Assembly: GCA_963792945.1 (NCBI GenBank)
Contig: CAWBYM010000017.1
Span: 313,717 to 377,716, forward strand
Source of the DNA: an uncultured delta proteobacterium
Lineage (GTDB): Bacteria; Desulfobacterota; Desulfobacteria; Desulfobacterales; SG8-13
Direction: 5' to 3'
DNA length: 64,000 nucleotides
Both the position numbers and the translations under genes were made by a program. The notes beneath the pieces were generated by a model. That model had not been told where the DNA came from, made no database searches, and worked only from the letters and a program-made list of their open reading frames with translations. Positions 701 to 14,373 of the stretch are shown one piece after another. Numbering within the stretch: position 1 is the stretch's first letter; every line of letters begins with the position of its first letter.

Positions 701-906
701 AGGAGAGCGGTGTCCTGGTTTGTCCGCGCGGGGTCGGTGCCGGGCGCACTGCATTGAACCCAGGGGCTGCAAGGCCGAGGAATCACCGGGACGACACCGG
801 CAGGAGATTCTTGACAACCGCTGGTTATTGATTTAGGACAGGGCGAAAATCTATTCGACCCATCTTATCCCATACCCGCAATTCACTTAAAAAAAGGAGG
901 TTGGAA

Positions 907-1815
907 ATGTCTGCAAAGCTTATTTTGGGCACGGAAATCCGCGAGGAGATCCTGGAGGAGATTACCGCTGAGGTAGCGAAAATCAAAGAAAAACACGGTG
1001 TGGTACCCGGGCTTGTGACCATACTTGTGGGGGAAAATCCAGCTTCCATCTCTTACGTGACCCTGAAGATAAAGACGGCTCACCGCGTCGGCTTCAAAGA
1101 AATTCAGGATACCCAACCGGTAGACATTTCCGAGGCGGACTTGCTGGCGCTGATCGACAAATACAACAAGGACGATTCCATCAATGGCATTCTCGTCCAA
1201 CTGCCGCTTCCCAAACAAGTCGACGAAAAGAAAGTCCTCAACGCCATCGATCCTGACAAGGACGTGGACGGCTTCCATCCGGTCAACGTGGGGAGGCTGA
1301 TGATCGGCGGCAATGAAGTCAAATTTCCTCCGTGCACACCAGCCGGCATTCAAGAAATGATCGTGCGGGCTGGAGTTGAAACCAGCGGAGCCGAAGTCGT
1401 GGTGGTTGGTCGGTCCAATATCGTTGGGAAACCGATTGCGAACATGATGTTGCAAAAAGGACCGGGGGCCAATTCGACCGTCACGATCGTCCACACCCGC
1501 ACCAAAGACCTGGCCGCTCACTGCAAGCGGGCGGATATTCTGATTGTGGCGGCCGGTGTTCCGGATCTGGTCAAACCGGAGTGGATCAAGCCGGGAAGCT
1601 GCGTTATCGATGTGGGGGTCAATCGCGTGGGCGAGAAAATCAGCGAAAAAACCGGCAAAAAGATAGCGATTCTGAAAGGTGACGTCGATTTCGATGCGGC
1701 CAAAGAGATTGCGGGCTCCATTACCCCCGTGCCCGGTGGTGTTGGGCCGATGACGATTACGATGCTCATGAAAAACACTCTGAAATCCCTTAAATTCAAG
1801 CTGGGTATCGACTGA
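907..1815 (+). CDS. folD: bifunctional methylenetetrahydrofolate dehydrogenase / methenyl-THF cyclohydrolase
   Basis: Full-length FolD-like translation (SISYVTLKIKTA, DGFHPVNVGRL, VVVVGRSNIVGKP, PVPGGVGPMT). AAAGGAGG at 892-899 lies 7 nt before the ATG at 907. The track ORF starts two codons earlier at TTG 901. Confidence 0.9.
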   Translation: MSAKLILGTEIREEILEEITAEVAKIKEKHGVVPGLVTILVGENPASISYVTLKIKTAHRVGFKEIQDTQPVDISEADLLALIDKYNKDDSINGILVQLPLPKQVDEKKVLNAIDPDKDVDGFHPVNVGRLMIGGNEVKFPPCTPAGIQEMIVRAGVETSGAEVVVVGRSNIVGKPIANMMLQKGPGANSTVTIVHTRTKDLAAHCKRADILIVAAGVPDLVKPEWIKPGSCVIDVGVNRVGEKISEKTGKKIAILKGDVDFDAAKEIAGSITPVPGGVGPMTITMLMKNTLKSLKFKLGID

Positions 1816-1825
1816 TCACGATAAT

Positions 1826-1864
1826 GACGGTATGGGGAGCTTCGGCAGCGCTCTTCATACCGTC
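1826..1864 (+). terminator. putative folD terminator hairpin
   Basis: 9-bp stem gacggtatg (1826-1834) / cataccgtc (1856-1864), 11 nt after the folD stop. It is followed by acgtttgcaattattt, which is only a weak U-tract. Confidence 0.35.
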
Positions 1865-2012
1865 ACGTTTGCAATTATTTAATATTACTATTATATTTAA
1901 GGAAATGTGGAGGTCATACCGTCCCAACCGTTTGTTCATGGGGCACATCAGCGCTGCTGCCGCGATTGTTCTGATTAATCAAGGCTTCACAGGTCATGTT
2001 TCGATATTTTTC

Positions 2013-2042
2013 TTGACTCTTGATCGGGGTTTGCGATACGAT
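2013..2042 (+). promoter_or_regulatory. sigma70-like promoter candidate for the riboswitch leader
   Basis: TTGACT (2013-2018), 18-nt spacer, TACGAT (2037-2042). An AT-rich stretch precedes it (1867-1905). The predicted start falls just before the aptamer. Confidence 0.4.
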
Positions 2043-2050
2043 CTTTGCAA

Positions 2051-2146
2051 GACTAAATATCGAAAAGGGCAAAGTCACCGAAAGGCGACGACGCAAAACC
2101 ATGGGTCTACCGCCGCAAGGCCACGACTGCCAGGTTGCCGAAGTCA
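2051..2146 (+). promoter_or_regulatory. c-di-GMP-I (GEMM-I)-like riboswitch aptamer
   Basis: AAGGGCAAAG, then hairpin GUCACC-GAAA-GGCGAC, then GACGCAAAACC, then a bulged helix CCAUGGGUC...GACUGCCAGG capped by GCC-GCAA-GGC, then GGUUGCCGA. The order and sequence mirror the V. cholerae Vc2 aptamer as I recall it (GGGCAAACC, GAAA hairpin, GACGCAAAGCC, GGGUUACCGA). Confidence 0.75.
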
Positions 2147-2156
2147 ACGTATTCCG

Positions 2157-2188
2157 CCTTTGGGTGATTCACCCGAGGGTTTTTTTTT
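2157..2188 (+). terminator. intrinsic terminator (riboswitch expression platform)
   Basis: Stem cctttgggtg (2157-2166) / cacccgaggg (2170-2179), 10 pairs including two G-U. It is followed directly by a run of 9 T (2180-2188). Confidence 0.8.
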
Positions 2189-2380
2189 GGGAGAGAGAGA
2201 GCTCTCAAGGAAACTGGAGCCTGCGCCGATAATAAATGGCAGCGAACGAGATACTATTTAGATGGTCACCATTTGAATTGTTCAGGCTGAAAAAGCGAAT
2301 GTGATACATGAGTGGGCATAATAATTCGCAAACACCGCCATAATCGACTGCAACAAATGGTATATTAGGATTAAGTCGCC

Positions 2381-3298
2381 ATGCGAAAAAAAATCTCACT
2401 GGTTATCCTGAGTAACTCCGGTGCGTCGGTCAAGCAGGTTACCATTTCAAAGGCATTTCTAAAGGGTTTTGTGGTTTTCTGCCTGGCAGCCGTCGCTGCC
2501 GTGAGCTATGATTATTATAATTTGAAAATTTCCTCTGTTCAGTCAATGGACAACGCCGTCCAGCTTTCCAGTCAACACGATGAAATCATTCGCCAACGGC
2601 AGCAGATTCAAGATTTTGCCTCGGAGATTTCCGAGCTTAAAAACAAACTGGTCGATCTGAACAATTTCGAGAAAAAAATCAGGATCATCGCCAACATCGA
2701 AAACACCGACGATCAGAACAACTTGTTTGGAGTCGGCGGATCGATCCCTGAGGATCTGGATACCCAGATTCCTTTGAATCAGAAGCACAACAGCCTGCTG
2801 CGCGAAATGCACGAGCAGGTGGATCAGCTTCACCTGGCCTCCATCAACCAGGACCAGGGCTTTGAAACCCTTTTCAAACACCTTCAGGACCAACAGAGCC
2901 TGTTGGCATCGACACCCGCCATCCGACCCTGCCAGGGGTGGACGACGTCGAATTTCGGTTACCGCATATCCCCGTTTACCGGCCGGCGCGAGTTTCACAA
3001 GGGATTCGATATCGCCAATCGAAAAGGGACCCCCATCGTTGCCACCGCCGACGGGGTGGTTTCTTTCGCTGGAGGCAAGGGCCTGCTCGGCAATACGGTC
3101 GTTATCGATCATGGCCACGGAATGGTTACCCGATATGGTCATTTGGACAAATTGGCAGCCAAACGGGGCAAAGCCGTTAAACGCGGAGAAAAGATCGCCA
3201 CGATGGGCAACACCGGCAGAAGCACCGGACCCCACGTACATTATGAAATTCATTTGAATGGAATTCCGGTCAATCCGGAGAAATATATTCTGAATTAA
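2381..3298 (+). CDS. M23 family (LytM-type) metallopeptidase with N-terminal TM helix and coiled-coil region
   Basis: HKGFD (HxxxD) and GPHVHYEIH (HxH) zinc motifs. There is an N-terminal hydrophobic segment FVVFCLAAVAAV and a Q/E-rich coiled-coil-like middle region. Confidence 0.85.
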   Translation: MRKKISLVILSNSGASVKQVTISKAFLKGFVVFCLAAVAAVSYDYYNLKISSVQSMDNAVQLSSQHDEIIRQRQQIQDFASEISELKNKLVDLNNFEKKIRIIANIENTDDQNNLFGVGGSIPEDLDTQIPLNQKHNSLLREMHEQVDQLHLASINQDQGFETLFKHLQDQQSLLASTPAIRPCQGWTTSNFGYRISPFTGRREFHKGFDIANRKGTPIVATADGVVSFAGGKGLLGNTVVIDHGHGMVTRYGHLDKLAAKRGKAVKRGEKIATMGNTGRSTGPHVHYEIHLNGIPVNPEKYILN

Positions 3299-3578
3299 CT
3301 TTCTCGGCGTGCCTTTTTGACCCCTTCACGTTGTTTTGAGTGAAGAGGTTATTTTCTTTGACCTCCCCGGTTTAGACATACCCGCTCTGCAGGACCTGCC
3401 ATCGTCGACCTTTTTTTACACCTCGATGATCGACGCCGCACGGCGTGAATCGCCAAAGTGCCTTTCCCCTGTTTCACCGTTTCACCTATTCCAGTTGAAT
3501 TTACATGTTGAGCCCTTTGGCCCATGTGTTATAATCATCCTTTTAACGTATCCATCACCAAGGAGGCCGTTGCCCATC

Positions 3579-14050: not shown

Positions 14051-14126
14051 GTGGGTGTAGCTCAGGTGGTAGAGCGCCAGGTTGTGGCCCTGGTGGTCGT
14101 GGGTTCAAGTCCCATCACTCACCCCA
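14051..14126 (+). tRNA. tRNA-His (anticodon GTG)
   Basis: Cloverleaf traced by hand. There is an extra 5' G(-1) opposite the discriminator C. Acceptor GTGGGTG/CACTCAC, anticodon arm CCAGG-TTGTGGC-CCTGG, T-arm GTGGG-TTCAAGT-CCCAT, and an encoded CCA. Confidence 0.9.

Positions 14127-14296: not shown

Positions 14297-14373
<77 letters not shown>

Follow-up and report, generated by a model that had tools for sequence, protein, structure and literature searches.

The 565-bp spacer between folD and the gene of an M23 (LytM-type) peptidase in an uncultured delta proteobacterium of the Desulfobacterales raises the question of which regulatory element it holds, which ligand this element senses and in which direction the peptidase gene is controlled. 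The spacer lies in a stretch of 64,000 nucleotides (assembly GCA_963792945.1, contig CAWBYM010000017.1, positions 313,717 to 377,716 of the forward strand), referred to below as the window and numbered from its first letter. With the stop codon of folD at 1815 and the ATG of the M23 gene at 2381, the spacer length given in a preliminary description of the locus is correct. That description placed a c-di-GMP-I (GEMM-I)-like riboswitch followed by an intrinsic terminator in the spacer, and the computational analysis reported here examines the assignment, the ligand, the conservation of the element and the logic of its action. The explanation that is considered likely as a whole is that a promoter, a cyclic di-GMP (c-di-GMP) aptamer and a terminator work together as an OFF switch repressing a probable peptidoglycan DD-endopeptidase.

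The whole window was scanned with cmscan against 4227 Rfam families, and three matches exceeded the gathering scores, two of them to tRNAs and the third to the c-di-GMP-I family (RF01051; gathering score 35 bits). The RF01051 match reaches 79.2 bits over model positions 1-87 of 87, with an E-value of 6.4e-14 for the 64-kb window and of 7e-16 when the 700-nt spacer region alone is scanned, which is far beyond chance and decisively upholds the riboswitch claim of the preliminary description. It is the best match of its clan, overlapping matches to variant families having been dropped for their lower scores, and a permissive Rfam scan (E <= 1) of positions 1800-2500 returned RF01051 only, with no tandem aptamer and no second riboswitch. 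Judged by sequence and predicted fold, the element is a canonical class-I c-di-GMP riboswitch, a further instance of a well-characterised class, in an uncultured Desulfobacterales lineage. Three protein-coding open reading frames that overlap the element, 1824-2261 (forward strand, 145 aa), 2020-2232 (forward strand, 70 aa) and 1914-2147 (reverse strand, 77 aa), were rejected because of the full-length match to a structured RNA and because the closest relatives carry frame-breaking indels of 10 nt and 8 nt within 2189-2261.

A genome-collection scan with the M23 protein yielded 45 loci, the 40 closest of which belong to metagenome-assembled genomes (MAGs) of uncultured Desulfobacterales or "delta proteobacterium" with 45-89% protein identity. 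In 22 loci (L001-L019, L030, L031 and L033), the region ahead of the orthologous M23 gene matches RF01051 at 64-82 bits, and these homologous leaders together with that of the window make up a 23-sequence alignment. All 23 leaders share one design, in which a promoter is followed by the aptamer, a short linker and a hairpin with a U run. The pairs of the aptamer and the terminator are formed in 92% of the alignment cells versus 24-47% when the partners are slid by 1-3 columns, which supports the pairings of the P1/P2/P3 type expected for the class. No RF01051 match was found by the Rfam scan upstream of the M23 gene in L020-L029 and L034-L040, and motif inspection of the riboswitch-less syntenic loci L020-L029 and L034-L037 revealed no GEMM core. 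The gene order argC-folD-M23-secA is kept with or without the riboswitch, and therefore the element appears to be a clade-restricted insertion into, or loss from, a stable locus.

The existence of relatives with the same synteny that lack the element (L020-L029, L034-L037) would also suit a decaying relic devoid of any regulatory role, as would locus L032, where the 5' half of the aptamer is accompanied by a large insertion. For the window element this is hardly credible, given that the full-model match is more than twice the gathering score with all ligand-contact positions intact, and that promoter, aptamer and terminator have been kept as a set in 22 loci, the M23 proteins of which are diverged down to 52% identity. 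The L032 element itself (2770-2960) lies in the same synteny and has the aptamer 5' half, GGCGAAGTCACTGAAAGATGGCTGCGCAAAACC, a second hairpin with a long insertion and no Rfam match above the gathering score; it represents a copy in decay or a variant whose helix has been expanded.

Every hallmark that the preliminary description had listed for the aptamer was found in order at its place in the window sequence (Table 1). The GEMM motif as defined by Weinberg et al. (2007, PMC1950547) has stems of 2 bp and 6 bp with an internal loop of 3 nt, its hairpin loop is of the GNRA type and its linker is "virtually always AAA"; all of these features are present in the window aptamer. The covariance-model pair list contains the 2-bp helix (G2069-C2094 and C2070-G2093), and the alignment to the model assigns the internal loop AAA to 2071-2073, the tetraloop GAAA to 2080-2083 and the linker AAA to 2095-2097. 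The 6-position stem (2074-2079/2084-2089) carries one mismatch, A2077/C2086, and this A/C mismatch of the GAAA hairpin is kept in 19 of the 23 leaders. The element thus resembles Vc2 and the RF01051 type in its 2-bp and 6-bp GAAA hairpin, its AAA linker, its long bulged second hairpin, its G, A and C contacts and its 5' regulatory position to a membrane or cell-envelope gene, and differs from them in its uncultured Desulfobacterales host and in the M23 peptidase as the product of the downstream gene. Two structural departures from the RF01051 type are also seen, as the core is flanked by an outer helix that is weak and differs between homologues, and the receptor region UCUACC (2106-2111)/CACGA (2122-2126), which aligns to the consensus receptor and has its CUA invariant in the 23 sequences, differs from the canonical 11-nt motif (CCUAAG/UAUGG).

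In Vc2 the ligand is recognized by G20, which pairs with G-alpha, by C92, which forms a Watson-Crick pair with G-beta, and by A47 (PMC6140456, PMC5888326). The positions predicted to contact the ligand in the window read G2068, A2095 and C2138. We take these to be the equivalents of Vc2 G20, A47 and C92 through model positions 11, 38 and 83, a mapping for which the sole check on the numbering is that the model spacings equal those of Vc2, 27 nt (20 to 47) and 45 nt (47 to 92). The preliminary description had raised the question of G or A at the first of these positions, and the aligned nucleotide, at model position 11 (window 2068), is G, so that the mark of the GEMM-Ib variants, A at the Vc2 G20 equivalent (A14 in Gs1761), is lacking in the window. 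With G rather than A at 2068, the aptamer is assigned to the c-di-GMP type rather than to GEMM-Ib, and its predicted ligand is c-di-GMP, not that of an A20 variant sensing 3'3'-cyclic GMP-AMP (cGAMP). The same column (column 11 of alignment A1) holds G in 22 of the 23 leaders, the window included, and A in L016 only.

A specificity for cGAMP, or for both dinucleotides, as in Geobacter GEMM-Ib, would be compatible with the fact that GEMM-Ib aptamers score as RF01051, that some natural variants are bispecific (PMC6140456), and that one homologous leader, L016, has A at the G20 equivalent. This is rated as quite improbable for the window, since G occupies that column in the window and in 21 of the 22 homologues, and the affinity of wild-type Vc2 (G20) is picomolar for c-di-GMP and only ~10 uM for cGAMP (PMC6140456). 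The Geobacter riboswitches (Gs1761, pilM) share with the window element the fold, the Rfam family, a deltaproteobacterial-type lineage and a termination-based platform, whereas they have A at Vc2 G20 and act as an ON switch in the studied pilM case (PMC9262584, PMC6140456), and the window has G together with a predicted OFF logic. In L016 (2637-2721; MAG D1103U20metaG_sub_Bin_132) the corresponding segment reads CGAAAAAGCAAAG, with the A that characterises GEMM-Ib variants sensing cGAMP or both dinucleotides.

The aptamer is framed by predicted signals for the start and the end of transcription. The promoter candidate TTGACT-N18-TACGAT, proposed earlier just upstream of the aptamer, is indeed present there and agrees with the consensus at 9 of 12 positions, which is weak taken alone, and its position is kept throughout the homologues: all 23 leaders have a TTGAC[AT] hexamer 40-46 nt ahead of the aptamer, most of them also have a TAnnnT-type -10 hexamer at a spacer of 17-18 (weaker candidates in L017, L030 and L031), and the block CAGGTYATGTTTCGATATTTTTCTTGAC of the promoter region is retained in the closest relatives. 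The predicted transcription start is at ~2049-2050. The terminator scan gave a single terminator-like site, 2156-2188, where a hairpin and a T9 run had been described; the hairpin and the run stand, the stem having 11 pairs, including 3 G-U, and not 10. With its 3-nt loop, this hairpin alone has a folding energy of -16.8 kcal/mol, and a hairpin with a U run is present in all 22 homologues, 6 of its stem pairs being changed on both sides.

A unit that has its own promoter and a strong terminator is self-contained, and the M23 gene is separated from it by an untranslated region (UTR) of ~190 nt in the window and of up to 326 nt in the homologues. Furthermore, a second promoter-like site, TTGACA-N14-TGATAAnnA (read by eye), is found between the terminator and the M23 start codon in L003, L016, L017 and L018. 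All this would suit a mainly stand-alone small RNA, a c-di-GMP sponge or a trans-acting molecule, with the M23 gene driven by its own downstream signals, and a highly expressed terminated GEMM-I RNA is reportedly found in Bdellovibrio. Such a role is nevertheless improbable, because the consensus scan finds no promoter-like site on the forward strand at 2189-2380 of the window, because in the 22 homologous loci the element always stands in a 5' regulatory configuration to the same orthologous gene, and because a constitutively terminated RNA would have no use for the conserved pairing potential of the terminator 5' arm with the aptamer, described below.

The direction of control was approached through the relation between aptamer and terminator. 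The terminator stem starts at 2156, 14 nt past the last aptamer position, 2142, leaving a 13-nt linker and no overlap, and the two folds are compatible, with a combined structure of -38.8 kcal/mol and with both coexisting in the minimum-free-energy (MFE) structure of several homologues. The 5' arm of the terminator, the switching (T) strand, is complementary to an aptamer strand that runs from the 5' arm of the tetraloop hairpin through its GAAA loop and includes most of its 3' arm, 13 of 14 positions being able to pair. As aptamer and terminator are compatible and the T strand is complementary to the aptamer, we infer a transcriptional OFF switch, in which high c-di-GMP most likely turns the gene off. 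An experimentally characterised precedent is Cd1, the c-di-GMP-I OFF switch of the flgB leader of Clostridioides difficile, in which aptamer and terminator coexist (PMC9262584). Both features of this type are found in the window leader, where the terminator is compatible with the folded aptamer and its 5' strand can pair with the unliganded one, and the likeness would extend to an antiterminator that is built from the terminator 5' strand and competes with the aptamer, so that the ligand favours termination (PMC9262584 for Cd1). The Cd1 antiterminator uses the aptamer-closing 3' strand, whereas that of the window would use the GAAA-hairpin strand in the aptamer 5' half, with the 3' tail as a weaker alternative, and the Cd1 linker is far longer (binding-competent lengths of 87-147 nt versus 13 nt in the window).

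The proposed antiterminator helix is the MFE fold of the leader and of a transcript truncated before the terminator 3' arm, and in the latter, which mimics the decision point, it brings a gain of 12.6 kcal/mol over a T strand left unpaired. When the T strand was shuffled, an equal or better upstream pairing energy was reached in 2 of 200 shuffles for the window and in 1 of 200 for each of L001 and L004. In the alignment of the 23 leaders, 84% of the cells of this helix are paired, compared to 36-50% in slid registers, and a compensatory change, CACC/GGUG to CUCC/GGAG, is observed in L004. Both A2077 and C2086, the mismatched nucleotides of the hairpin, become Watson-Crick paired in the antiterminator register of the window. 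Between the two arms of the terminator, conservation is higher on the 5' side (mean column identity 0.86 versus 0.77), as expected if this arm has two partners. The antiterminator and terminator states are within a few kcal/mol of each other, and two weaker partners of the T strand are available, AAGGGC around G2068 and CCGAAG around C2138.

An ON switch was the original model for many GEMM elements, and the same riboswitch could be imagined to work in this way, c-di-GMP preventing termination and inducing the M23 peptidase. This reading was rejected as very unlikely, given that aptamer and terminator do not overlap. Their folds being compatible, ligand binding cannot directly disrupt the terminator, and on inspection by eye the linker (2143-2154) shows no complementarity to the T strand from which a ligand-released antiterminator could be formed.

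Several observations weigh against the OFF switch as described. The covariation within the aptamer is sparse, most pairs never varying across the 23 leaders because the homologues are close, and it gives little information either way. The shuffle test is not significant in distant homologues (31 of 200 in L005, 25 of 200 in L013, 143 of 200 in L016 and 117 of 200 in L033), and the T strand favours different aptamer partners in different homologues, AAGGGC near the G20 equivalent or CCGAAG near the C92 equivalent, so that no single antiterminator helix is conserved in its exact form. When the leader is folded from the predicted start site, its thermodynamic MFE structure includes the terminator, and therefore read-through, the ON state, must be kinetic. 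The second promoter-like site in L003 and L016-L018 means that the riboswitch need not be the only control of the gene, and the ~190-nt UTR after the terminator is partly conserved without explanation. Support for the antiterminator pairing thus appears good within the clade to which the window belongs, and lower in distant homologues. The predicted direction of regulation is robust to the uncertainty about the partner, because all three partner segments are strands of the aptamer core that the ligand would sequester.

With the OFF switch retained as the most likely logic, the following course of events is proposed. The leader RNA would start at ~2049 from the promoter and comprise the aptamer, the 13-nt linker and the terminator, and the sole element able to block termination would be the T strand paired with the purine-rich core of the unliganded aptamer, mainly with 2074-2087. 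At low c-di-GMP, the nascent terminator 5' arm would invade the mismatch-weakened hairpin, the terminator could not form, and the polymerase would read through the 5' UTR into the M23 gene. At high c-di-GMP, the ligand, contacted by G2068, A2095 and C2138, would lock the aptamer and leave the 5' arm free to pair with the 3' arm, so that transcription would stop at the U9 run and a leader of ~140 nt would be released. The net outcome would be repression of the probable peptidoglycan DD-endopeptidase by c-di-GMP.

Table 1. Positions in the window of the riboswitch components and the flanking genes
Feature	Position	Strand	Basis
Sigma-70-type promoter (-35 TTGACT 2013-2018, 18-nt spacer, -10 TACGAT 2037-2042)	2013-2042	+	consensus scan
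c-di-GMP-I (GEMM-I) aptamer	2058-2142	+	RF01051 covariance model, full length
Hallmark motif AAGGGCAAAG	2066-2075	+	sequence reading
Hairpin GUCACC-GAAA-GGCGAC	2074-2089	+	sequence reading
Proposed antiterminator strand GUCACCGAAAGGCG	2074-2087	+	complementarity
Hallmark motif GACGCAAAACC	2090-2100	+	sequence reading
Bulged helix capped by GCAA	helix 2097-2136, loop 2115-2118	+	covariance-model alignment
Hallmark motif GGUUGCCGA	2133-2141	+	sequence reading
Proposed switching (T) strand CGCCUUUGGGUGAU, terminator 5' arm	2155-2168	+	complementarity to 2074-2087
Intrinsic terminator (stem 2156-2166/2170-2180, loop AUU, U9 2180-2188)	2156-2188	+	terminator scan
M23 (LytM-type) metallopeptidase gene, 305 aa	2381-3298	+	Pfam PF01551
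folD, upstream flank of the spacer	901-1815		

The next gene had been described as that of a membrane-anchored M23/LytM peptidase, and its product is matched by Peptidase_M23 (E 8.6e-36, 122.5 bits versus a cutoff of 28.7) over residues 205-299. It has one N-terminal hydrophobic segment (~residues 26-41), from which the membrane topology was read, and a long low-complexity or helical linker. The HxxxD and HxH zinc/catalytic motifs of the family are intact (HKGFD at 206-210, DHG at 243-245 and HVH at 285-287), and the nearest solved and curated relatives are DD-endopeptidases of the MepM/ShyA/Pgp3 type, the degenerate activators EnvC and NlpD scoring far lower. None of the NCBIfam equivalog cutoffs (MepM, ShyA, Pgp3, EnvC, NlpD) is reached by the product, and specific orthology is not claimed. 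The protein is most likely an active periplasmic endopeptidase, with peptidoglycan as its presumed substrate. The preliminary description had suggested that cyclic-dinucleotide signalling is linked here to a cell-wall hydrolase or a hydrolase activator; the link to the M23 gene is conserved in the clade and the product is hydrolase-like, whereas an activator of the EnvC/NlpD type is unlikely because the catalytic motifs are intact.

Upstream of folD lies argC, and the M23 gene is followed by secA, clpS and clpA. The listed secA reading frame starts at TTG 3336, SecA_DEAD begins only at its residue 88 and the conserved N-terminus starts at ~3579, so the true start is probably an internal ATG. 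A promoter-like site with a TG extension, agreeing with the consensus at 10 of 12 positions, is located at 3508-3535 ahead of secA, and the scan gave no terminator-like site between the M23 gene and secA; hence riboswitch-gated transcripts may reach secA, which would not depend on them. A crude motif scan of all long reading frames in the window for GG[DE]EF, EAL-, HD-GYP- and PilZ-type motifs found none. The two tRNA genes, both on the forward strand, are at 14051-14123 (64.6 bits) and 14297-14370 (71.3 bits).

Several further features were noted in the spacer. Just past the folD stop codon, at 1828-1866, there is a GC-rich hairpin, ACGGTATGGGGAGC...GCTCTTCATACCGT, whose GGGGAG...CTCCCC arms are kept in relatives and which is probably the end of the folD transcript, though it has no clear T run. 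Positions 2190-2201, directly past the U run of the terminator, are occupied by a (GA)n run, GGGAGAGAGAGAG, which represents a 10-nt insertion relative to L001, L002 and L019. The predicted fold of the UTR at 2189-2400 is indistinguishable from shuffles (z = -0.42). An inverted repeat at 2334-2389, UUCGCA...AUAAUC/GGAUUA...UGCGAA, is present in the window and its three closest relatives, and its second arm includes AGGA and the AUG, so that it could sequester the ribosome-binding site and the start codon; its pairs are all invariant and hence provide no covariation evidence. The UTR of L015 is marked by a tandem duplication: at ~2740-3000, past the terminator and before the M23 gene, more than two copies of a unit of ~100 nt, ggcaccgcatctgcggcgttgtcgggcacttgac..., follow each other.

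A literature search pairing "c-di-GMP riboswitch" with "M23" returned no paper, and the association of this riboswitch with an M23 gene may be undescribed, yet unsurprising. To our knowledge, a link between c-di-GMP and a cell-wall endopeptidase has so far been documented only via protein-level or unknown pathways, as for EagA in Erwinia. EagA of Erwinia amylovora is a similar case, a MepM/ShyB-like M23 endopeptidase whose expression is tied to c-di-GMP and for which an aggregation phenotype is described, whereas its regulation is transcriptional, via Zur and an uncharacterised c-di-GMP-dependent pathway, with no riboswitch and in the context of a znu cluster (PMC7705223). It may tentatively be proposed, with doubt prevailing, that in one Desulfobacterales clade the housekeeping-looking endopeptidase of the folD-M23-secA locus has come under direct c-di-GMP control by RNA, that this control is of the OFF type with an antiterminator made of the GNRA-hairpin strand and not of the closing helix, and that the G-to-A change in L016 may retune the aptamer to cGAMP. 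If so, L016 would represent a natural drift of ligand specificity within one orthologous leader outside Geobacter.

The value of the analysis is mainly one of annotation, as it provides a regulated 5' leader, its likely regulatory direction and its target gene in an uncultured sulfate-reducer lineage. The 22 orthologous leaders form a compact natural series in which the expression platform drifts while the aptamer is fixed; the series contains one A20 variant as well as one leader whose second hairpin is disrupted. If the OFF logic is true, high c-di-GMP, as in the sessile or aggregated state, would lower the production of a probable peptidoglycan DD-endopeptidase, and the riboswitch would provide a direct link from the second messenger to cell-wall remodelling or cell separation.

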